In this document: in pieces, positions 2,543 through 26,288 of the stretch
Layout of the letters: every line of letters starts with the position of its first letter
Numbering within the stretch: the stretch's first letter is position 1
Source of the DNA: Candidatus Nitrosomarinus catalinensis
GTDB taxonomy: Archaea; Thermoproteota; Nitrososphaeria; Nitrososphaerales; Nitrosopumilaceae
Direction: 5' to 3'
Assembly (NCBI RefSeq): GCF_002156965.1
Contig: NZ_CP021324.1
Location: forward strand, 600,681-632,680
DNA length: 32,000 nucleotides
Made by a program: the position numbers and the translations under genes
Notes under the pieces: generated by a model
The model's input: the letters and a program-made list of their open reading frames with translations, nothing else
What the model was told of the DNA's origin: nothing
The model's database searches: none

Positions 2543-3046
2543 ATGTCTACATTATTAGAAAAAGAGATTAAAGTAAATCGTATTGTTACTACGAGCACAG
2601 ATGATGCACGCGCAATTGAAGACCCTGCACGAGCAAAAATAGTAGAAATTCTATATCGACAGACAATGTCTGCTGATCAAATATCCACTGCACTAAAAAA
2701 ACACGGATTCAAAAAAGCACTTACTACAGTAAGACATCATTTGGAAATTTTAAAAAATTCTGGATTAATTGAAATTGCAAGAATTGAAGAATCTAGAGGT
2801 GCTATCACTAAATTTTACAGCACTTCTACAAAACTCTTAGATTTTCAAACACCTGAAAACTTTGATTCAACATATTCAAAAATCATTGATAATACATCTG
2901 AGAAAATTGAAAAGATTCTCAAATCTCTTGGACCTAAAACTGGTAAATCTAAGGGTAAGAAATCTAATGAATATTCGCAATATTTGGTAATGGAAATTAT
3001 GAATAGGGCGATGACTAACGTGCTTGAAAAATCCAATAAAAAATAA
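2543..3046 (+). CDS. ArsR-family winged-helix transcriptional regulator with C-terminal extension
   Basis: ARAKIVEILYRQTMSADQISTAL...TVRHHLEILKNSGLIEI is a classic ArsR/SmtB wHTH. About 350 bp of AT-rich non-coding leader lies upstream. Confidence 0.75.
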   Translation: MSTLLEKEIKVNRIVTTSTDDARAIEDPARAKIVEILYRQTMSADQISTALKKHGFKKALTTVRHHLEILKNSGLIEIARIEESRGAITKFYSTSTKLLDFQTPENFDSTYSKIIDNTSEKIEKILKSLGPKTGKSKGKKSNEYSQYLVMEIMNRAMTNVLEKSNKK

Positions 3047-3154: not shown

Positions 3155-3586
3155 ATGGATGTTACAAATTGTAGAAAAATGACTGATGAAAAAGTTGTAA
3201 AATTATTTTCAGAAAAAAATCTTGTTTTCATTGCAACTATAATGAAAGATGGCTCTCCCCAGGTTTCTCCTGTTTGGGCAAATTATGAGGATGGACTTAT
3301 CTTAGTAAATACTGCTGAGGGTAGGATAAAACACAAAAATATCTTACGTGATCCTCGTGTTGCAGTGTCCGTTACCTCCAATGACAATCCTCTTGATATG
3401 ACCACAATTCGAGGTAAAGTAATTGAAATAATTTCTGATGCCGATTACTCTCATGCAGATAAATTAACTCAACAGTATATGGGACGTCCTAATTATCCCT
3501 TTAAGCAAGAAAATGAGAAACGAATCATTTTGAAAATTAAGCCTGAAAAAATTTTTGTTTTACCTGAGTTGCAGATGTCTGATTGA
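3155..3586 (+). CDS. Pyridoxamine 5'-phosphate oxidase (PPOX) family / FMN-binding split-barrel protein
   Basis: 143 aa. LVFIATIMKDGSPQVSPVWANYEDGLILVNTAEGRIKHKNILRDPRVAVSV is a typical PPOX-class pattern. Confidence 0.7.
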   Translation: MDVTNCRKMTDEKVVKLFSEKNLVFIATIMKDGSPQVSPVWANYEDGLILVNTAEGRIKHKNILRDPRVAVSVTSNDNPLDMTTIRGKVIEIISDADYSHADKLTQQYMGRPNYPFKQENEKRIILKIKPEKIFVLPELQMSD

Positions 3587-3606: not shown

Positions 3607-3633
3607 ATGTTTCTAAATTCGAATTTAGAAATA
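3607..3633. repeat. Palindromic 27-nt intergenic repeat, copy 1 (ATGTTTCTAAATTCGAATTTAGAAATA)
   Basis: Perfect 22-bp palindrome TTTCTAAATTC/GAATTTAGAAA at 3610-3631. Lies between convergent gene ends (3586 and 3679). Confidence 0.9.
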
Positions 3634-3678
3634 TGGTATATCTAATACGTTAATTTTTAAAAAAGGTGATTTGACAGC

Positions 3679-4089
3679 TTAACGTTTTCGTTTAGCTGCC
3701 TTTCTCTTTGGAGCGGCTTTGCGTTTTGGAGCAGCTTTACGTTTTGGTGCTGCTTTCTTTTTAGCTGCCTTTCTCTTTGGAGCTGCTTTCTTAGCTGCAG
3801 TTTTTCGTTTTGGAGCGGCCTTTTTCTTAGCTGCCTTACGTTTTGGTGCTGCTTTCTTTTTAGCTGCCTTACGTTTTGGAGCGGCCTTTTTCTTAGCTGC
3901 AGTTTTTCTCTTTGGTGCTGCTTTCTTAGCTGCATTCTTCCTTCGAGTTGCTGCTGCCTTTCTCTTACGAGCTGCTGCTGCCTTTAGTGCTTCAGCTGCT
4001 TTCTTAGCTGCATTCCTCTTACGAGTTCTTGCTGCTTTCTTAGCTGCTTCAGCTCTTTTGGCTTTAGATATTGCCATGACTTTTTTCAA
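3679..4089 (-). CDS. Highly basic Lys/Ala/Pro-repeat protein (histone H1 C-terminal tail / AlgP / Hc1-like); likely true start is the ATG at 4077
   Basis: About 8 tandem AAPKRKAAKKK-type units follow a non-repetitive N-terminus MAISKAKRAEAAKKAARTRKRN. Position 4089 is TTG and the in-frame ATG is at 4075-4077. An AT-rich TATA-like stretch lies upstream on the minus strand. Confidence 0.7.
   Translation of the reverse strand: MKKVMAISKAKRAEAAKKAARTRKRNAAKKAAEALKAAAARKRKAAATRRKNAAKKAAPKRKTAAKKKAAPKRKAAKKKAAPKRKAAKKKAAPKRKTAAKKAAPKRKAAKKKAAPKRKAAPKRKAAPKRKAAKRKR
3690..3930. repeat. Coding tandem repeat (about 33-nt period, imperfect) inside the Lys/Ala-rich gene
   Basis: Repeated GCTGCCTT(A/T)CG/CTTTTGG(A/T)GC(G/T)GC... 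units. Differences between copies are mostly synonymous at the protein level (AAPKRK kept). Confidence 0.85.
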
Positions 4090-4179
4090 AAATAGTATGT
4101 GTTATGTAGTAAAAGTCACACAATACTACGCTTACTATAATAAAATTTGACACTTTTTTTATTTTTTAAAATTTATCGA

Positions 4180-4665
4180 TCAACAATTTGTTAGACAAAT
4201 TGATGCCGTATCTACTGTTGCTTGATCCTTTTGCGGTCTTATGACAATTTTATAATTTTCATCTTCATCAAATGGAATGTCAAATTGTGTTGTAACTTCA
4301 ATTGGTTTGTTTGGTTCTAATCCTACCAACCATAGGTCTTTTGATGAAAATTCACCAAAAACTGCCTTATGTTTTTGATCCTTTTCATCAATCAGGAAAA
4401 ATTGTCCTCCAGACACAACTGTATTTTCATCACTGATATTTTTTGCAATAATGCCAATTTTTACAAATGTATTTTCTGGCTCTGTCTCTTTATCCCCATC
4501 ATGTGTGCCCTCAAAAGTTACTATGTATTCCACTGGCCCTACGATGACTGTTTCTCCTTCACTAACTTCGATGAAATTGGTTTGATATTGCATGTACATG
4601 TAATTTGCTAGTACCATTGAACCAATTATTGCTCCAATTACAATTACTAAGCCCATTCGTGCCAT
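4180..4665 (-). CDS. N-terminally membrane-anchored extracytoplasmic protein (possible DUF4352-like beta-sandwich)
   Basis: 161 aa. N-terminal TM segment GLVIVIGAIIGSMVLANYMY is followed by a beta-rich domain (FVKIGIIAKNISDENTVVSGGQFFLIDEKDQKHKAV). The family assignment is tentative. Confidence 0.55.
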   Translation of the reverse strand: MARMGLVIVIGAIIGSMVLANYMYMQYQTNFIEVSEGETVIVGPVEYIVTFEGTHDGDKETEPENTFVKIGIIAKNISDENTVVSGGQFFLIDEKDQKHKAVFGEFSSKDLWLVGLEPNKPIEVTTQFDIPFDEDENYKIVIRPQKDQATVDTASICLTNC

Positions 4666-4759
4666 AATTTGTCACTCATTTTTTGATATATAGTTGCAAC
4701 GTAAATTTTCATTTTAGTATTTTGAAGTTTTTTATATTGTAGGGAAAAATTATGTCAAA

Positions 4760-5265
4760 ATAGGGGGGTATTTGGGACGATTAATTGACTATTTTTTCAT
4801 AAATTTCATTATTTTGAATTATTTTTTACCTGGATTGTACTTGTTTTCAAATTCATTTTTGGGAAATATTTGCTCAATTTCTATGAATTTTTTCTACAAA
4901 TTCACTTAATTTGTGGGGGTTTAGCTTTTACGCCTACTTTAGAAAGATTACCCATCCTTTGTTGGGATACCTTGGTGGAATTGCCCTTGCTTTTTGTATC
5001 TAGGCATAAGTGTTAAACCCCCCATCAAAATGCCTGTTTTCCAAAATTTCATCATATGCCTGAAACCCTTTTTTTCATAGGGGGGTTTAACGCGTAGGCA
5101 TGAACTTGTAGTTTTATCATTATTTGCAATTTTGTTCATTCATTTTCAAAAATATTTTTTATGAATATTTTTGTCCATTTTTTAAACAATATCCTTTCCA
5201 AAAATTTCATCATATTATCACATGATTTGTTTTTTGATAATATTTTGTTGTTTTACCCCCCCCCT
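4760..5265. other. Gene-free region with G/C homopolymer runs and complementary hairpins (candidate structured ncRNA or regulatory DNA; strand unknown)
   Basis: G6 at 4763-4768, G5 at 4915-4919, C6 at 5018-5023, G6 at 5080-5085, C9 at 5256-5264. A 12-bp perfect inverted repeat pairs 5012-5023 with 5080-5091. See findings. Confidence 0.4.
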
Positions 5266-5306
5266 TTAAGGAAGAAATAGTTTGTCCATTTTTCATCTAT
5301 GATTTT

Positions 5307-5756
5307 TTAAAATGTTTTTAATAGAAATCTGGCTGTTTTTTCATGTTTATCTGAAACACTGTCTATTGCTTCAAACATTGCTTGTTGGTTGATGTTATCT
5401 TTGTCATCTAATACGACATAGACTGCAATTTTTTGTTTTCCATCTTCGTTGATTATTTTACTTATTGCTTCAATTGAATTGCAAAAATCTGAAACTTTGT
5501 TGGCAAATTTTGTTCTTTCTTCTTCATTAAATCCTCTGTATCTGATAATTTGATTATTCTTCATTTCTATTTTTGCCCCTATTACTAGAATTCCTAATTG
5601 TGCTTTTGGTTCAAAAATTTCTACTGGTATTCCGTATTGGCCTGCATGTTTTACTAAAATTTGGAATGTGTTTTCTTCATTCTTGACTTGATCAAATGAC
5701 AAACTTTCATGAATTAACCATCTTTCTACATTATCTCTCATTCTTGATGCACTCAT
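5307..5756 (-). CDS. Hypothetical cytoplasmic protein (possibly DUF2299/YbjN-like; uncertain)
   Basis: 149-aa ORF with normal composition and an ATG start. No motif I can assign securely. Confidence 0.5.
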   Translation of the reverse strand: MSASRMRDNVERWLIHESLSFDQVKNEENTFQILVKHAGQYGIPVEIFEPKAQLGILVIGAKIEMKNNQIIRYRGFNEEERTKFANKVSDFCNSIEAISKIINEDGKQKIAVYVVLDDKDNINQQAMFEAIDSVSDKHEKTARFLLKTF

Positions 5757-5821
5757 TGTTGAATTTTTGAATTTACTTCTATATGATTCTAAATTTGATA
5801 AATTGCTAGTATCAATTAGAT

Positions 5822-5848
5822 ATGTTTCTAAATTCGAATTTAGAAATA
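5822..5848. repeat. Palindromic 27-nt intergenic repeat, copy 2
   Basis: Core identical to copy 1, with the perfect palindrome at 5825-5846. Lies between two minus-strand genes (3' end at 5882, start at 5756). Confidence 0.9.
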
Positions 5849-5881
5849 AGTTAAATTTAGGATGGGAAATTAGCGTGTTGG

Positions 5882-6109
5882 CTAGACGTTAACATTAAAG
5901 CCTGGATTGCTCACAACGTCAACTCCTAATAGCATGATGTTGAAAATAATTCCAATTACCATCATCACAATTCCTATGTATATGCAATTTTTTGCTTTAC
6001 GAGGATCATCTTTTCTGATGATCAAATAGCCAATAATTCCTCCAATCATTCCTATGAATATTGGAAGCAAATACCATGCATTACTTCTTGGTTTTTCTGA
6101 ATAAGTCAT
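5882..6109 (-). CDS. Small two-TM membrane protein
   Basis: 75 aa. Two hydrophobic helices (WYLLPIFIGMIGGIIGYLII and IYIGIVMMVIGIIFNIMLLGV) flank a basic loop RKDDPRKAK. Begins 4 nt after the upstream gene's stop. Confidence 0.55.
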   Translation of the reverse strand: MTYSEKPRSNAWYLLPIFIGMIGGIIGYLIIRKDDPRKAKNCIYIGIVMMVIGIIFNIMLLGVDVVSNPGFNVNV

Positions 6110-6113
6110 AAAA

Positions 6114-6362
6114 TTATTTTGTTAAAGCTACTTTTTTCTGTAACTGTGTAATCTCAATTTCTACAGTTTCTAGTGGATCTTCTACTTGATTTCTTTTTAT
6201 TGAAAACATTTTTGGTTTTTCAAAGTCATCTGTACAATCTGGACATGCATAAACTAACACTCTGTGTTCATTCGGTGCTTTTGGATTGGATAATCTGGGA
6301 TAATATACCAGTCTTGCACCACAATCCACACAATATCTATTGGCTCTTCTAGTTCTAACCAA
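6114..6362 (-). CDS. Small zinc-ribbon protein
   Basis: 82 aa. CVDC...(23 aa)...CPDC four-Cys ribbon with a coiled-coil-like C-terminus. TTG start, and no in-frame ATG nearby. Confidence 0.55.
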   Translation of the reverse strand: MVRTRRANRYCVDCGARLVYYPRLSNPKAPNEHRVLVYACPDCTDDFEKPKMFSIKRNQVEDPLETVEIEITQLQKKVALTK

Positions 6363-6449
6363 TGTAAACTTCCTGCATATTGTTATTGCCCGATCATGTA
6401 TTAGATCTATGTTGTCTAATTGAGTAAACCAATTACTTACAACCGATCA

Positions 6450-6476
6450 ATGTTTCTAAACTCGAATTTAGAAATA
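6450..6476. repeat. Palindromic 27-nt intergenic repeat, copy 3 (one T>C change)
   Basis: ATGTTTCTAAACTCGAATTTAGAAATA. The substitution becomes a G-U wobble only if the minus strand is transcribed. Confidence 0.85.
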
Positions 6477-6519
6477 TAATCTTCTTTCTGTTAGTGATAC
6501 ACTAGATTAAAGATAAAAA

Positions 6520-6546
6520 ATGTTTCAAAACTCGAATTTAGAAATA
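6520..6546. repeat. Palindromic 27-nt intergenic repeat, copy 4 (two changes); candidate terminator or processing hairpin for tRNA-Asn
   Basis: ATGTTTCAAAACTCGAATTTAGAAATA begins 7 nt after the tRNA 3' end on the minus strand. A T6 run follows it on that strand (A6 at 6515-6520 on the plus strand). Confidence 0.8.
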
Positions 6547-6553
6547 TAAAATG

Positions 6554-6627
6554 CGCCTCCCACCAGACTTGAACTGGTGACCCACTGGTTAACAGCCAGT
6601 TGCTCTACCACGCTGAGCTAGGGAGGC
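6554..6627 (-). tRNA. tRNA-Asn (anticodon GUU), no intron, CCA not encoded
   Basis: Reverse complement is GCCUCCC-UA-GCUC-AGCGUGGUA-GAGC-A-ACUGG-CUGUUAA-CCAGU-GGGUC-ACCAG-UUCAAGU-CUGGU-GGGAGGC-G. Perfect cloverleaf of 74 nt. It is the only strongly GC-rich segment in this part of the window. Confidence 0.93.
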
Positions 6628-20654: not shown

Positions 20655-20971
20655 CTCTCTTGCTTTACTTTATTTTTGTCATAAAAGGATTTTTTAATAA
20701 TTTCATAAATTAGTTAATTGACTACGAGCTATTGGTTTACCCAAATTAAAAAGACAATATTATTTCTAGTTTAGTTGTAAATTAATTATGAAAAATAACA
20801 AAGAATTGAGATCATTAAAAATCGAATTAATGAAATCTCTAGATGGATCAAATAATGGATATTTTGGATTATCTTTAGAAACTTTAATTGATAATTGATA
20901 ATTTCATTCCTAGATCTGATTAATTATCCTACTTTTTCAAAATTCTTAAGTTATGATGTTTTAGGAATTTC

Positions 20972-21313
20972 ATGGCAAAATTTAGTGTTGAACTCCCAAT
21001 TTCAAAAAAACCTACAGATCTTGAATTAAAAAAACTAAAAGAATATTTCAAGGAAATGCCTGTCAATGAAATAATTACTGGCCTTAAATTTGCAAAAAGT
21101 AGATGGCATGCTAAAGATTCTGGAACTCTAAAAGTTGGAAGAAAAAGTATTGTTCAAAAAGAAGTACATTCAGTTACTGCCGAACAAGCTCAATGGAGAT
21201 TAAAAAATTGGAAAATGATGATTTCAAATTACCGTCGTAGAGGCTATAGTTATCCAACAATATCCAGAATTAAAAAAATTCTAATTCAAAAGAGTAAAAA
21301 GAAATCAAAGTAA
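20972..21313 (+). CDS. Hypothetical basic protein
   Basis: 113-aa ORF, Lys/Arg-rich with a KKSKKKSK tail. Divergent from the helicase. No recognisable motif. Confidence 0.45.
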   Translation: MAKFSVELPISKKPTDLELKKLKEYFKEMPVNEIITGLKFAKSRWHAKDSGTLKVGRKSIVQKEVHSVTAEQAQWRLKNWKMMISNYRRRGYSYPTISRIKKILIQKSKKKSK

Positions 21314-21330: not shown

Positions 21331-21981
21331 CTAAATGAAGATATCTGCTTTTTTCTGTGCTACTTGTTGTCTTAATTCTGTTGGAACTTCTGGAATTGAT
21401 GATTTTGTTTGTCCTGCAATAACATTGTGTGCTTCTTCTAATATTGCAAGTGTGTCTGAATTTGTTTCAGTTTGTGTAGTAAAGTTATCTTCCATTCCTA
21501 CGGATGATCCTGACATAACATCTCCAAGTATTTGTGATAAGTCTTGCATTGAAGCATTTGCTTCAGGCATAATTCCACTTAATGATGGACTTAATCCTTT
21601 GATTATTGACATACATGGACTCAATGTTACAACAACATCTCCTAATTCTGAAACAGTGTCTAATCTAAGTTTAACTTGCTCCATGGATAGTTTTGCTCCA
21701 CTTACCATGTTTTTCATTTTTCTAACTTGTGCTAATTCTCCTGCATATGCTTGTGCATAAACTGGTTTGTTATTTCTCTGTGCATTTACACATTTTTCAA
21801 AAATTTTGTCATGTTTTGCTTGTAATTTTTCATTAATTCCTGATAATTTTGTAATTTGTGATTGTAGTTTTTTCTGAGCAAAATCAATTCTATTTTTTAA
21901 TGGTTCATCAGGCTTTACCTTGCCCATTACTTTTTGAGATATTGATTCTCCTTCTGTTTTATTCCATGAATTACTTATCAT
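21331..21981 (-). CDS. ESCRT-III / Snf7-family protein (CdvB-like paralogue)
   Basis: 216 aa. Long N-terminal coiled-coil hairpin (KNRIDFAQKKLQSQITKLSGINEKLQAKHDKIFEKCV...AGELAQVRKMKNM) and an acidic C-terminal region. Assignment is by overall Snf7-like architecture, not a strict motif. Confidence 0.55.
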   Translation of the reverse strand: MISNSWNKTEGESISQKVMGKVKPDEPLKNRIDFAQKKLQSQITKLSGINEKLQAKHDKIFEKCVNAQRNNKPVYAQAYAGELAQVRKMKNMVSGAKLSMEQVKLRLDTVSELGDVVVTLSPCMSIIKGLSPSLSGIMPEANASMQDLSQILGDVMSGSSVGMEDNFTTQTETNSDTLAILEEAHNVIAGQTKSSIPEVPTELRQQVAQKKADIFI

Positions 21982-22073
21982 ACTGATTTCGTAATTTTTC
22001 TTAATTTTTTTCTTTTAAACAGATTTGTAACTCTGGTTTGTGTACCTTCGGTTACACTATACACGGTTACATC

Positions 22074-24125: not shown

Positions 24126-25256
24126 TTAGTAAAATTTCTTAAAACCTTTTTCAAATATTTGTAAGGATTCCTCTATATCTGATTTTTTTAGCCATGCTGT
24201 GACTGAAATTCTTAGTCTAGCTTGATTTTTTGCAACCGTTGGATATCTGATTGGTTGAGCAAATATTCCATTTTTAAATAAAAATTTTCCAAATTCCATC
24301 GCTGTTTTTTCTTTTCCTATGATTATTGGTATAATTTGTGATTTAGAATTAATTTCATACCCGATTGATTTTAGACCCTCTGATAATTTTGCTATATTGT
24401 CATGTAATTTTTTTTGCTGAATTTCTCTGTTTGACTGAATTCTCTTAATTGAATGCTCCACTAAAAATGATGGTAGAGCTGATGTATAGATAAATGATTT
24501 TGACTTGTTTATGCATGAATCAATAACGTTATTTTGTGATGACACATAGCCTCCAAACGATCCTAGTCCCTTGCTTAAACTACTGATATACAAATCAATT
24601 TTTTTTGCCACGTTAAAATAGTTTGGTGTACCTTTTCCATCTTTTCCAATTACAAAATCTCCATGTGCATCATCTACAATTGTAATGGCATTTGTTTTTT
24701 CTGAAATTTCTGTAATTTCCTTTAGTGATGATACATCCCCATCCATGCTGAAAATCCCTTCAGTTATGATGAACTTGTTTTTTCCTTGTAATTTAATTTT
24801 TTTTGATAAGTCATTCATGTCATTATGTTTGTAAATTGATATTTTGGCACCCGATAATTTACATGATTCAATAATGCTGGCATGATTTAATTCGTCACTT
24901 AGAATTAAATCTCCTTTTTTTGCTATTGCTGAAATTGAACCTAAATTAGCCATGTATCCAGTAGGAAAAATTAAACTATTTTGTTGTCCTTTGTGCTTGG
25001 ATAGAATTTTTTCAAGTTTTCTATATGATTCATCATTTCCTGAAACTAATCTGGAACTTGATTGAAGTTGATTTGTTTGAATTTTGGTTATTGGAATTCC
25101 AAGATAATCATTTGAGCATAAATTAATTAATTTTTTTTCTTTAATTGTTATGTATGCGCCTTGTGCTTTTCCATATTGTAATTTTCTATGTAAATTATCA
25201 TTCTTAATTTTGGATAACTCTGAATCAATAAAATTGAGTTTATGCTTCAAGACCAA
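24126..25256 (-). CDS. bioF: 8-amino-7-oxononanoate synthase
   Basis: 376 aa. Class-II aminotransferase pattern (DDAHG, SLSKGLGSFGG with the PLP lysine). Located in the bio cluster. Confidence 0.85.
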   Translation of the reverse strand: MVLKHKLNFIDSELSKIKNDNLHRKLQYGKAQGAYITIKEKKLINLCSNDYLGIPITKIQTNQLQSSSRLVSGNDESYRKLEKILSKHKGQQNSLIFPTGYMANLGSISAIAKKGDLILSDELNHASIIESCKLSGAKISIYKHNDMNDLSKKIKLQGKNKFIITEGIFSMDGDVSSLKEITEISEKTNAITIVDDAHGDFVIGKDGKGTPNYFNVAKKIDLYISSLSKGLGSFGGYVSSQNNVIDSCINKSKSFIYTSALPSFLVEHSIKRIQSNREIQQKKLHDNIAKLSEGLKSIGYEINSKSQIIPIIIGKEKTAMEFGKFLFKNGIFAQPIRYPTVAKNQARLRISVTAWLKKSDIEESLQIFEKGFKKFY

Positions 25257-26223
25257 TTTTTTCTATCATTTTGCGGTCTTTTTGGGCATCGTTTCCATCC
25301 ATCGTTAAGTATCCTTGTGTAATAATTCCATTTGCTCCACTTTGTAACAATTCTTCACCTGAATCATCCAAGTTTGTCTCTCTTCCTCCAGAAATTTTAA
25401 TGACTGATTCAGGCAATAAGAAACGTATGACTGAAAATATTCTGGTAATTTCAGAATTAGGTAAATCCACTTGTAATTCTAAAGGTGTTCCTGGAACCGG
25501 AACTAGTATGTTTATTGTTACTTCTTCAGGATATATTCTTGCTAACTCTAATGTCATTTCGATTCTCTGGTCTCTTGTTTCTCCTAAACCAATAATTCCT
25601 CCAGTACACAACTCCAAACCTGCCTCTCTTGCAATTTCAAGTGTGTCTAATCTGTCTTGGTAAGTGTGAGTTGTACATATTTCTGGAAATTTTGACTTTG
25701 CTGTTTCTAAATTATGATTATATCTTTTTACTTTTAGTTCTTTGAGTTTAGTTGCTTGTTCTTTTGTTAGAAAACCCAAACTACATTCAACACTAATTCC
25801 AACTTTATTATTAATTTCTGAAATGATTTTACAAACATTTGTAAAATCTTTTGATGAAGGTTCTCTCCATGCTGCAACTAGACAATATGATTCTGCACCC
25901 TCATCTTTTGCTTTTTGAGCTTTTGTAACTACCTCTTCTGGTGTTGGTAATTGATATGTTTCAATACCTGTATCAAAAAATGCTGATTGTCCACAAAAGG
26001 TACAATCTTCACTACATGCATTTTTTTTAATATTGTTTAATTGTTCAACATCTACTTTATTTCCATTATAGTCTCTAGTTATTTCATTGGCACATCTAGC
26101 TAATTCTTTGAGATCATCTTCTGGAACGTTAAATAACTTCTTTGCATCTTCTGAGGAAATCCTTTCTCCTGAAAATACTTTTTCTTGACACTCCTTGATA
26201 AATTCCAAATTGCTCATGTTCAA
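25240..26223 (-). CDS. bioB: Biotin synthase (radical SAM)
   Basis: 327 aa. CSEDCTFCGQS radical-SAM CxxxCxxC motif and YNHNLET. Overlaps bioF by 17 nt. Confidence 0.9.
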   Translation of the reverse strand: MNMSNLEFIKECQEKVFSGERISSEDAKKLFNVPEDDLKELARCANEITRDYNGNKVDVEQLNNIKKNACSEDCTFCGQSAFFDTGIETYQLPTPEEVVTKAQKAKDEGAESYCLVAAWREPSSKDFTNVCKIISEINNKVGISVECSLGFLTKEQATKLKELKVKRYNHNLETAKSKFPEICTTHTYQDRLDTLEIAREAGLELCTGGIIGLGETRDQRIEMTLELARIYPEEVTINILVPVPGTPLELQVDLPNSEITRIFSVIRFLLPESVIKISGGRETNLDDSGEELLQSGANGIITQGYLTMDGNDAQKDRKMIEKIGLEA

Positions 26224-26288
26224 AGTTTTTTATTTCCATTTATAAAAATATGGTAATTGTTAACCCTAAGAAATTCCCTAGTTAACAG

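Follow-up and report, generated by a model that had tools for sequence, protein, structure and literature searches.

The palindrome described here recurs in the genome of the archaeon Candidatus Nitrosomarinus catalinensis (assembly GCF_002156965.1, contig NZ_CP021324.1). The window, that is, the whole stretch of 32,000 nucleotides (nt) that was analysed (positions 600,681 to 632,680 of the contig), is AT-rich, with about 31% GC, and belongs to a Nitrosopumilus-type genome. It contains four copies of a palindrome of 28 base pairs (bp), all of them intergenic and on the strand-switch side of a ribosomal-protein array. Starting from that array, the order is tRNA-Asn, site 4, site 3, a zinc-ribbon gene (Zn82), a membrane-protein gene (TM75), site 2, a DUF2299 gene, 640 nt of non-coding DNA, a DUF4352 gene, a lysine/alanine-rich (K/A-rich) gene and site 1; beyond site 1 lie the PNPOx and ArsR-type genes, which are convergent with the K/A-rich gene. 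Gene orientation converges and GC skew switches at site 1. The sites and their surroundings, in the same order, are as follows.

6553–6627, minus strand: tRNA-Asn (GTT), closing the ribosomal-protein array on the side of the sites
6520–6547, no strand assigned: site 4, with two changes, 5–6 nt past the tRNA-Asn 3' end and with T6 next on the minus strand (6515–6520)
6450–6477, no strand assigned: site 3, with one change (T>C), 88 nt (counted from the 27-mer) upstream of the Zn82 start
6363–6449, minus strand: leader/promoter region between site 3 and Zn82, conserved across genera
6114–6362, minus strand: Zn82, an 82-residue four-cysteine zinc-ribbon protein to which no family could be assigned
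5882–6109, minus strand: TM75, a 75-residue two-helix membrane protein, forming with Zn82 the cassette between sites 3 and 2
5822–5849, no strand assigned: site 2, core identical to that of site 1, 34 nt past the TM75 stop and 66 nt upstream of the DUF2299 start
5307–5756, minus strand: DUF2299 protein, encoded by the gene that opens the cassette from site 2 to site 1
4901–5110, plus strand: conserved element without coding function (70–80% identity across Nitrosopumilales genera), within the cassette bounded by sites 2 and 1
4180–4665, minus strand: DUF4352 protein with an N-terminal membrane helix
3679–4089, minus strand: 136-residue K/A-rich repeat protein (AAKKKAAPKRK-like units), last gene before site 1
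3607–3634, no strand assigned: site 1, palindrome ATGTTTCTAAATTCGAATTTAGAAATAT, between the convergent 3' ends of the PNPOx gene (stop 3586) and the K/A-rich gene (stop 3679)
3155–3586, plus strand: PNPOx-family protein, stop codon 20 nt before site 1
2543–3046, plus strand: winged-helix regulator of ArsR type that weakly resembles Phr and MsvR and keeps its synteny with PNPOx and site 1

An earlier note on this DNA had reported the element as a 27-mer present in four intergenic copies that could not be due to chance, and matching, shuffling and the gene map bear this out. The 27-mer lies at 3607–3633 and 5822–5848 without mismatches, at 6450–6476 with one (T>C) and at 6520–6546 with two (T>A and T>C), and 100 shuffled versions of the window gave no match, the chance expectation being 0. 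The placement of copies 2 and 3 upstream of minus-strand starts (those of DUF2299 and of the zinc-ribbon gene, at the distances given above) and of copy 4 just past tRNA-Asn, before a T6 run on the minus strand, holds as well, with a distance of 5–6 nt when counted here from the tRNA 3' end at 6553. No fifth match to the 22-bp core was found in the 32 kb at up to three mismatches, and isolated half-sites are absent apart from a one-mismatch match at 20935, where about two such matches are expected by chance. Sites 3 and 4 form a tandem duplication of a site plus a spacer of about 43 nt, with a period of 70–71 nt; two copies of this unit stand in the window (6450–6547) and three in a related locus (L116, 4530–4700), two of the three being identical.

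Comparison of 112 related sites gave the consensus ATR-TTTCWAAAY-TCGA-RTTTWGAAA-YAT. The conserved unit is 28 bp long, as the A-T-R and Y-A-T flanks are also kept (T in 96%, A in 80%, then R, and mirrored on the other side); conservation stops outside these 28 bp, and the central TCGA, which would be the loop of a hairpin, is invariant. A scan of prokaryotes with one genome per species matched at least 120 stretches, and, bacterial ones aside, all of them belong to Nitrososphaerota, with GC contents from 0.26 to 0.61; among the matches listed are the genera Nitrosopumilus, Nitrosarchaeum, Nitrosopelagicus, Nitrosotenuis, Nitrosotalea, Nitrososphaera and Nitrosocosmicus. The bacterial matches were ruled out as a related element, being runs of tandem TTCGAAA/ATTTCGA heptamers (L015, L017, L019, L021, L064, L067, L085 and other loci of metagenome-assembled genomes, notably of Pyrinomonadaceae and other Acidobacteriota). 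Within 581 kb of Nitrososphaerota DNA, 154 sites match ATRTTTCWAAAYTCGARTTTWGAAAYAT with 0–4 mismatches, none with 5–6, and matches with 7 are at chance level; occurrence is all-or-none, and weak or decayed copies do not exist in these 581 kb. Ten near-identical metagenome contigs retain all four sites, the core fixed and the flanks drifting. The core sequence was not found in the searchable literature, and reviews of archaeal dif sites, replication origins and thaumarchaeal viruses do not mention the palindrome.

Chromosomes carry one to six copies, two to four in many relatives, clustered in a single neighbourhood of about 30 kb, and a junction map built by clustering the open reading frames (ORFs) that flank the sites shows the same few junctions again and again. 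The distance from the Zn82 start to the 22-bp core is 90–91 nt in 16 genomes of several genera, and tRNA-Asn directly precedes a site in nine other Nitrosopumilales loci. The site between TM75 and DUF2299 lies 64–68 nt upstream of the DUF2299 start and is orthologous in many genera, that after the PNPOx stop follows within a few to about 45 nt (mostly 5–26 nt), and a further one stands 80–127 nt upstream of cdvB and 18 nt after a thioredoxin-like gene (C42). In Nitrososphaerales, sites are found 51–66 nt before bioB, 5 nt after bioF, 54–90 nt before bioA, 34–39 nt before a conserved 111-residue gene paired with cdvB (where the TATA box abuts the site), and 5 nt after C40, the last gene of an LLM-thiolase-DUF35 operon; a site also stands 36 nt before the LLM-thiolase operon. 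Most host sites abut a stop codon; sites fall 0–16 nt after the stops of five different genes and 4–7 nt after tRNA-Asn. In the window itself, cdvB, its 113-residue neighbour and bioF, bioB, bioA and bioD lie 15–25 kb from the sites, so that a single neighbourhood holds all the recurring junctions. A second, independent set of 120 metagenome contigs, each carrying the exact 28-mer, yielded 150 sites. Of these, 61 follow the PNPOx stop, 35 follow tRNA-Asn or stand upstream of Zn82, 32 are at DUF2299, 5 lie by cdvB and 2 by bio genes, 8 belong to a single virus family and 7 fall elsewhere; 143 of the 150 thus fall in the same few contexts or in that virus family. A different context, upstream of a nuclease-like gene beside transposase fragments, was seen once.

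The palindrome is also carried by viruses. A scan of IMG/VR returned 50 contigs, 48 of which represent one family of circular virus-like elements of 4.1–4.7 kb with exactly one site each. This family has a GC content of about 0.39, occurs also in marine Tara Oceans assemblies and reaches a coverage of about 3100-fold according to contig names (loci L131–L154, L156–L160 and L162–L187, from IMG/VR and assemblies). Its roughly ten ORFs have no Pfam match and a single, marginal PHROG match (E about 0.01, function unknown), and no replicase or integrase is recognisable among them. The site sits in an intergenic region of about 88 bp, with both divergent first genes starting 30–32 nt from the 22-bp core, although the genome offers about 600 nt of further non-coding sequence in another place. 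Long contigs of the family are tandem concatemers, some of them of different variants, and no integrated copy turned up in the 50 contigs from IMG/VR, in 85 protein clusters or in 120 contigs from metagenomes. The Nitrosopumilaceae spindle-shaped virus NMJ1 (GenBank) likewise has one site, with one mismatch, in its 34 kb, located between the divergent ORF11 and ORF12 and 62 nt before ORF12; a distant relative (35–49% protein identity) has a site 36 nt before the ORF11 homologue. The paper on relatives of the spindle-shaped viruses does not mention the palindrome. Homology between virus and host proteins was sought and not found, either by tblastn or by profile-profile comparison (HHalign probability below 2%). 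The small circular family is linked to Nitrosopumilaceae only through the palindrome and a second shared element with a G-rich stem, described below.

A palindrome placed directly behind genes could act in RNA or in DNA, and the earlier note had leaned towards the former, taking it for a minus-strand hairpin that terminates or processes transcripts. Some features agree with a hairpin on the strand of the genes: the sites close behind the stops of five genes and behind tRNA-Asn, the T6 run after copy 4, and double changes from T-A to C-G at pair 12-17. The stem is weak, however, with predicted energies of -5.2 kcal/mol for copies 1 and 2 and -0.9 kcal/mol for copy 4, and copies 1–3 have no run of U 3' of the stem, site 1 being flanked by separate T5 and A6 runs. 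The argument that the T>C change leaves a G-U wobble on the minus strand does not carry, since in copies 3 and 4 pair 12-17 is U-G on that strand and pair 3-26 is A-C there; the inner T/G pair favours the minus strand and the outer G..T pair the plus strand. Among 61 sites with both neighbours on one strand, and hence a defined direction of transcription, pair 12-17 is G-U nine times and mismatched six times on the sense strand, pair 3-26 is an A-C mismatch in 27, and pair 8-21, in mid-stem, is U-U or A-A in 17, so that 28% break this one pair. The two halves of the site vary almost independently at position 3/26 (71 asymmetric sites against 72 expected) and less independently at position 8/21, where 41 of 141 sites are asymmetric against 53.5 expected. 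The loop and every base of the stem are conserved in sequence, and in both virus groups the site stands between divergent gene starts, not at 3' ends. Intrinsic terminators and repetitive extragenic palindromic (REP) elements resemble the element in being short palindromes right after genes; here the stem is AT-rich and weak, sequence and not structure is conserved, and copies are few. A transcript hairpin is thus a very improbable explanation. Since sequence is kept, including the would-be loop, and pairing is not, we conclude that the constraint acts on the sequence of double-stranded DNA, which points to a symmetric protein. That the palindrome is a protein site on DNA appears highly probable, and all the data fit.

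As to what such a protein would do, we tentatively favour, at somewhat less than even odds, a recognition site for a conserved dimeric host protein, which would mark the borders of transcription units as operator or boundary and which viruses would have borrowed. In this model, a dimeric DNA-binding protein of ammonia-oxidizing archaea would recognise the 28-bp palindrome, which is placed directly after the upstream gene and either abuts the BRE (B recognition element) and TATA box of the next promoter or stands about 27–30 nt upstream of them. The site would repress, activate or insulate the flanking promoters, and viruses, by carrying one copy in their own control region, would plug into the same host factor. 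What is shown is the sequence, how it is conserved and where it lies, that viruses carry it, and that covariation of the RNA type is lacking; protein binding and any effect on transcription are inferred. The palindrome shows the dyad symmetry of an operator, with the half-site sequence conserved and not its pairing, and its spacing is fixed relative to Zn82, DUF2299, bioB, the 111-residue gene, LLM and the viral genes, the sites at PNPOx and C40 having no promoter. At bioB, the palindrome lies 66 nt upstream, and the gene's own BirA-type operator and TATA box follow 27–30 nt beyond it. Fixed promoter spacing, the wedged viral position, single copies in viral control regions, the stable coexistence of identical copies over long times and the precedent of CIRCE (controlling inverted repeat of chaperone expression) all speak for an operator. 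CIRCE, the target of HrcA, is a 27-bp inverted repeat with one to three copies per genome that is conserved across phyla. The present element resembles it in being an inverted repeat of about 27–28 bp, found in few copies at a few fixed operons, all-or-none and nearly unchanged across distant lineages. It differs in that constraint extends here over all 28 positions, whereas conservation in CIRCE spares the 9-nt centre, and in that CIRCE always overlaps promoters of chaperone operons, whereas here the neighbours are not chaperone genes and the best-kept site lies at a 3'-3' junction. For the viruses, a parallel is offered by phages GIL01 and CTX-phi, whose control regions contain host LexA boxes, with a single copy of the operator of a host regulator at a key viral promoter; in the present case two unrelated virus groups carry the site and the host regulator is only postulated.

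Several observations weigh against an operator. The best-kept site, that behind the PNPOx stop, is flanked by convergent 3' ends, with no promoter for it to control, and the Nitrososphaerales site after C40, which faces the ribosomal protein L6 gene at an operon end, is likewise promoterless. At position 12/17, only 42 sites are asymmetric against 66 expected and symmetric states are over-represented, an excess that may come partly from relatedness. Continuous conservation over 28 bp together with all-or-none occurrence is more typical of recombination or partition sites, and two cassette inversions end exactly in palindromes. Finally, no candidate binder is encoded beside the sites in all lineages: the ArsR/Phr-like regulator and Zn82 occur in Nitrosopumilales only, the serine recombinase described below and a ribbon-helix-helix (RHH) protein in Nitrososphaerales only. 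The earlier proposal of an operator for a dimeric winged-helix regulator, with the local ArsR-type regulators as possible binders, is compatible with the data and stands first among the readings as far as the operator is concerned. In Nitrosopumilales, no recognisable DNA-binding protein other than the ArsR-type regulator (2543–3046) is encoded next to the cluster of sites; this regulator is a candidate binder. Zn82 was rejected as a universal binder, its 120 listed homologues being close (71–95%) and the named ones all of Nitrosopumilales type, and so was the serine recombinase, whose 120 listed homologues are at least 74% identical to the query, the named ones all from Nitrososphaeraceae. 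For the 113-residue protein encoded next to cdvB, the AlphaFold model, with a pLDDT (predicted local distance difference test) score of 44, was unusable, and a PDB sequence search for the candidate protein was empty. Small RHH (CopG-like) genes stand next to a palindrome in some low-GC Nitrososphaerales contigs and in one relative of the spindle-shaped viruses (L247, 1172–1381; L106, 3581–3787; L198, 2342–2524) and are further candidate binders.

The inversions lead to a different explanation, in which the palindrome is a site of site-specific recombination, either XerA/dif-like with an 11-6-11 layout or a crossover site of a small serine recombinase. A dif site is defined as 28 bp with two 11-bp inverted arms and a 6-bp spacer (PMC8371274), and the present 28 bp can be parsed as ATRTTTCWAAA + YTCGAR + TTTWGAAAYAT, with symmetric arms as in archaeal dif (PMC2958812, PMC8371274). 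Reported archaeal dif sites share a TAA-N6-TTA core (PMC11840125); the palindrome has AAA-N6-TTT at this place, or TAA-N8-TTA when W is T, and so matches that hallmark only with an 8-nt gap. It further resembles dif and the pdif modules of Acinetobacter plasmids in being intergenic and phylum-wide, in flanking cassettes, in coinciding with inversion end points and in occurring singly on small circles that have no recombinase; it differs in its palindromic centre and in copy number, chromosomal dif being single-copy while four copies stand within 3 kb here and several identical copies coexist stably. Its all-or-none conservation, the single site per viral replicon and the position of site 1 at the switch of gene orientation and GC skew also fit recombination. 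Between two sites lies the bioB-bioF cassette, whose orientation in L030, L125 and L272 is the reverse of that in over ten other Nitrososphaera loci (L043–L045, L060, L071 and L074 among them). Both of its flanks abut sites within 5 nt, and the outer genes (serine recombinase and bioA on one side, the 111-residue gene and cdvB on the other) have not moved. In a marine lineage (L286), the DUF2299 cassette has the opposite orientation to that in L288 and L238; the alignment changes strand within the palindrome, the one place where its collinear and inverted parts overlap. L225, considered as a further inversion, was withdrawn, as it aligns collinearly with its relatives. In Nitrososphaeraceae, moreover, a gene of the DNA-invertase family (PF00239 and PF02796) always stands beside the site-flanked bio segment, as gin, cin and pin do beside theirs. 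It encodes a serine recombinase of about 205 residues (resolvase domain and HTH_7), 68–75% identical across the fetched Nitrososphaerales loci and up to 95% among database homologues, and in every case it faces bioA tail-to-tail and adjoins the bioB-bioF segment that the palindromes flank (L012, L024, L027, L030, L043–L045, L057, L060, L071, L083, L103, L105, L106 and L125). The layout in this family recalls that of Hin and Gin, with inverted sites, an adjacent invertase and both orientations among species, and the hix/gix/cix sites share palindromic half-sites of 13–14 bp with an A-tract 4–7 bp from the centre, as well as a segment of about 2.2 kb between two sites with the invertase-family gene just outside. 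They part company in that the central dinucleotide is palindromic (CG) here, that the segment holds the housekeeping genes bioB-bioF with their own promoter, so that inversion would switch nothing, and that the Nitrosopumilales sites have no such gene nearby, no recombinase gene having been found in any of the Nitrosopumilales loci examined, the window included. If the palindromes were recombination sites, they could delimit chromosomal cassettes in the manner of pdif modules, and the integrase-less small viruses could use a cer/dif-like site. Against this, three to five near-identical sites have remained neighbours ever since the order-level radiation, and the intervening genes have not been lost, and some genomes have further sites beyond an essential ribosomal-protein operon; such long stability argues against an active recombinase, which would delete or randomise the segments. 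Inversions are rare (a few lineages in about 200 contigs), as they would be with occasional homologous exchange between short repeats, the search for integrated virus copies described above was negative, and the site of the small viruses is wedged between two promoters although some 600 nt of non-coding DNA are free elsewhere. We regard a recombination site as unlikely on balance, and as marginally less likely still the fuller version in which a host crossover site, served by a XerA/dif-like enzyme or a domesticated serine recombinase, would partition the region into invertible or exchangeable cassettes and the tiny viruses would exploit the host enzyme. If true, pdif modules and the Xer-exploiting mobile elements (IMEX) would have, in this array of crossover sites, their counterpart on an archaeal chromosome.

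Other explanations take up the same facts with less success. The clustering of an invariant, phylum-wide palindrome in one to six copies within one 30-kb neighbourhood per chromosome, with one copy per extrachromosomal replicon and the best-kept site at a convergent, promoterless junction, suits a site of chromosome architecture, whether centromere-like (parS-like), terminus-organising (matS/Ter-like) or one that positions SMC (structural maintenance of chromosomes) complexes, which persistent viruses would copy in order to hitch-hike. Bacterial parS sites show the same pattern of invariant, clustered palindromes. The present sites differ from parS in being strictly intergenic with fixed promoter spacing, which neither parS nor matS needs, and no gene of ParA, ParB or Seg type is seen in the window, the only ParA-like match being the dethiobiotin synthase BioD, so that an architectural role appears improbable. 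More improbable again is a symmetric, bidirectional core promoter made of back-to-back BRE and TATA-like halves (TCGAA plus TTTAGAAA) for a particular TFB/TBP pair, even though the start codons of both divergent first genes of the small viruses lie 30–32 nt from the core edges, those of the 111-residue gene and of LLM lie at 34–39 and 36 nt, and the putative DUF2299 promoter has a similar word, ATTTAGAAT. The typical TATA boxes of the genome read GATTAAATC or TTAATTAA and stand 22–25 nt before leaderless starts, bioB and the 111-residue gene have separate TATA boxes beyond the site, and at most host sites one half of the palindrome (at site 1, both halves) would fire antisense into a 3' end, yet the halves are equally conserved. 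The earlier note had also considered a selfish repeat family, of REP type or like miniature inverted-repeat transposable elements (MITE), or a local duplication remnant. The short, intergenic, multi-copy palindrome and the tandem duplications of 70–71 nt, as in L116, recall such repeats, but this idea is hardly credible: each genome has just a few copies, whose positions are orthologous all the way from Nitrosopumilus to Nitrososphaera, the flanks of the copies are unrelated, target duplications and terminal structures are lacking, and decayed copies do not exist. What remains of it is the restriction to one neighbourhood; the element, which recurs throughout the phylum, is not a duplication remnant.

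Two more specific assignments were rejected. The sites around bioB, bioF, bioA and bioD might suggest the operator of a biotin regulon, but in Nitrososphaera loci bioB has a separate BirA-type operator, TTGTAAACC-N15-GGTTTACAA, over the TTTTAATTA box 27–30 nt past the palindrome, and the palindrome itself does not show the BirA/bioO arrangement TTGTAAACC-N14-15-GGTTTACAA. Replication origin boxes (ORB) flank an AT-rich unwinding element next to orc1/cdc6; such a box is unlikely here, as the 32 kb contain no orc1/cdc6 gene, the gene orientations converge and do not diverge, and genes stand between the sites; no coordinates of the N. maritimus origin were found in the accessible literature. The element is best filed as a conserved protein-binding palindrome, unusual in its restriction to one neighbourhood, its carriage by viruses and its coincidence with inversion end points.

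Ammonia-oxidizing archaea are of global importance; we know of no genetic system for them and, to our knowledge, almost nothing is known of their gene control. A 28-bp signal that is invariant from marine Nitrosopumilus to soil Nitrososphaera offers a bait for a core DNA-binding protein, be it a regulator, a recombinase or an organiser. It also ties circular elements of about 4.3 kb without any known protein family, and a lineage of spindle-shaped viruses, to ammonia-oxidizing archaea. Should the sites serve recombination or partition, the phylum would gain its first described chromosomal system of that kind.

The second element shared with the small viruses is the conserved non-coding stretch at 4901–5110, which is a candidate for a new structured RNA. 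Its stem arms lie at 4915–4930 and 5008–5023, with GGGGGTTTAGC (at 4915) facing GTTAAACCCCCC (at 5012) across a loop of about 86 nt and with a third copy, GGGGGGTTTAAC, at 5080. The G-rich and C-rich arms (GGGGTTTAGC... and ...GYTAAACCCC) enclose a loop whose length of 86 nt is constant, and the stem shows double changes (TTTA/TAAA to TTGA/TCAA, and GC to AC/GT) and G-T wobbles that are consistent with the plus strand of the window. About one third of the small viruses have the same stem, with a loop of 85 nt, in their large non-coding region (best nhmmer E = 2e-4), which strengthens the link between host and virus. Rfam gave no match to the element in the window (tRNA only) or in the viruses, and RNAalifold found no covariation in a first alignment.

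Among the neighbouring genes, Zn82 shows 71–95% identity among the 120 homologues listed, with all named ones from Nitrosopumilales-type genomes, and in tblastn comparisons with the fetched loci it is more conserved (77–99%) than the neighbouring ribosomal protein L6 (44–84%). Some JGI records label it RpoP, which protein length and genomic context do not suggest. The region ahead of it (6363–6449) contains an ATTAGA-N9-TCTAAT inverted repeat (6400–6420), several GATC motifs and, ahead of a TTG start, a ribosome-binding site resembling GGAGG, and could be a second operator or a structured leader. The K/A-rich protein gave no family match in searches; its composition is like that of histone H1 or AlgP, and its length varies from 99 to 132 residues among close strains.

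Further inverted repeats stand near the genes that recur at the palindrome elsewhere in the phylum. The cdvB gene (21331–21981) is always tail-to-tail with the conserved uncharacterised gene of 111–113 residues (20972–21313 in the window), and upstream of it lies a GTAAC...GTTAC inverted repeat (22026–22056, minus strand), also present in other Nitrosopumilaceae and in Nitrosotalea, that is probably the site of a separate regulator. Over the promoter of bioB (25240–26223), the palindrome TGTTAAC-N16-GTTAACA (26258–26287, minus strand) is the local counterpart of the BirA-type operator of the Nitrososphaera loci.

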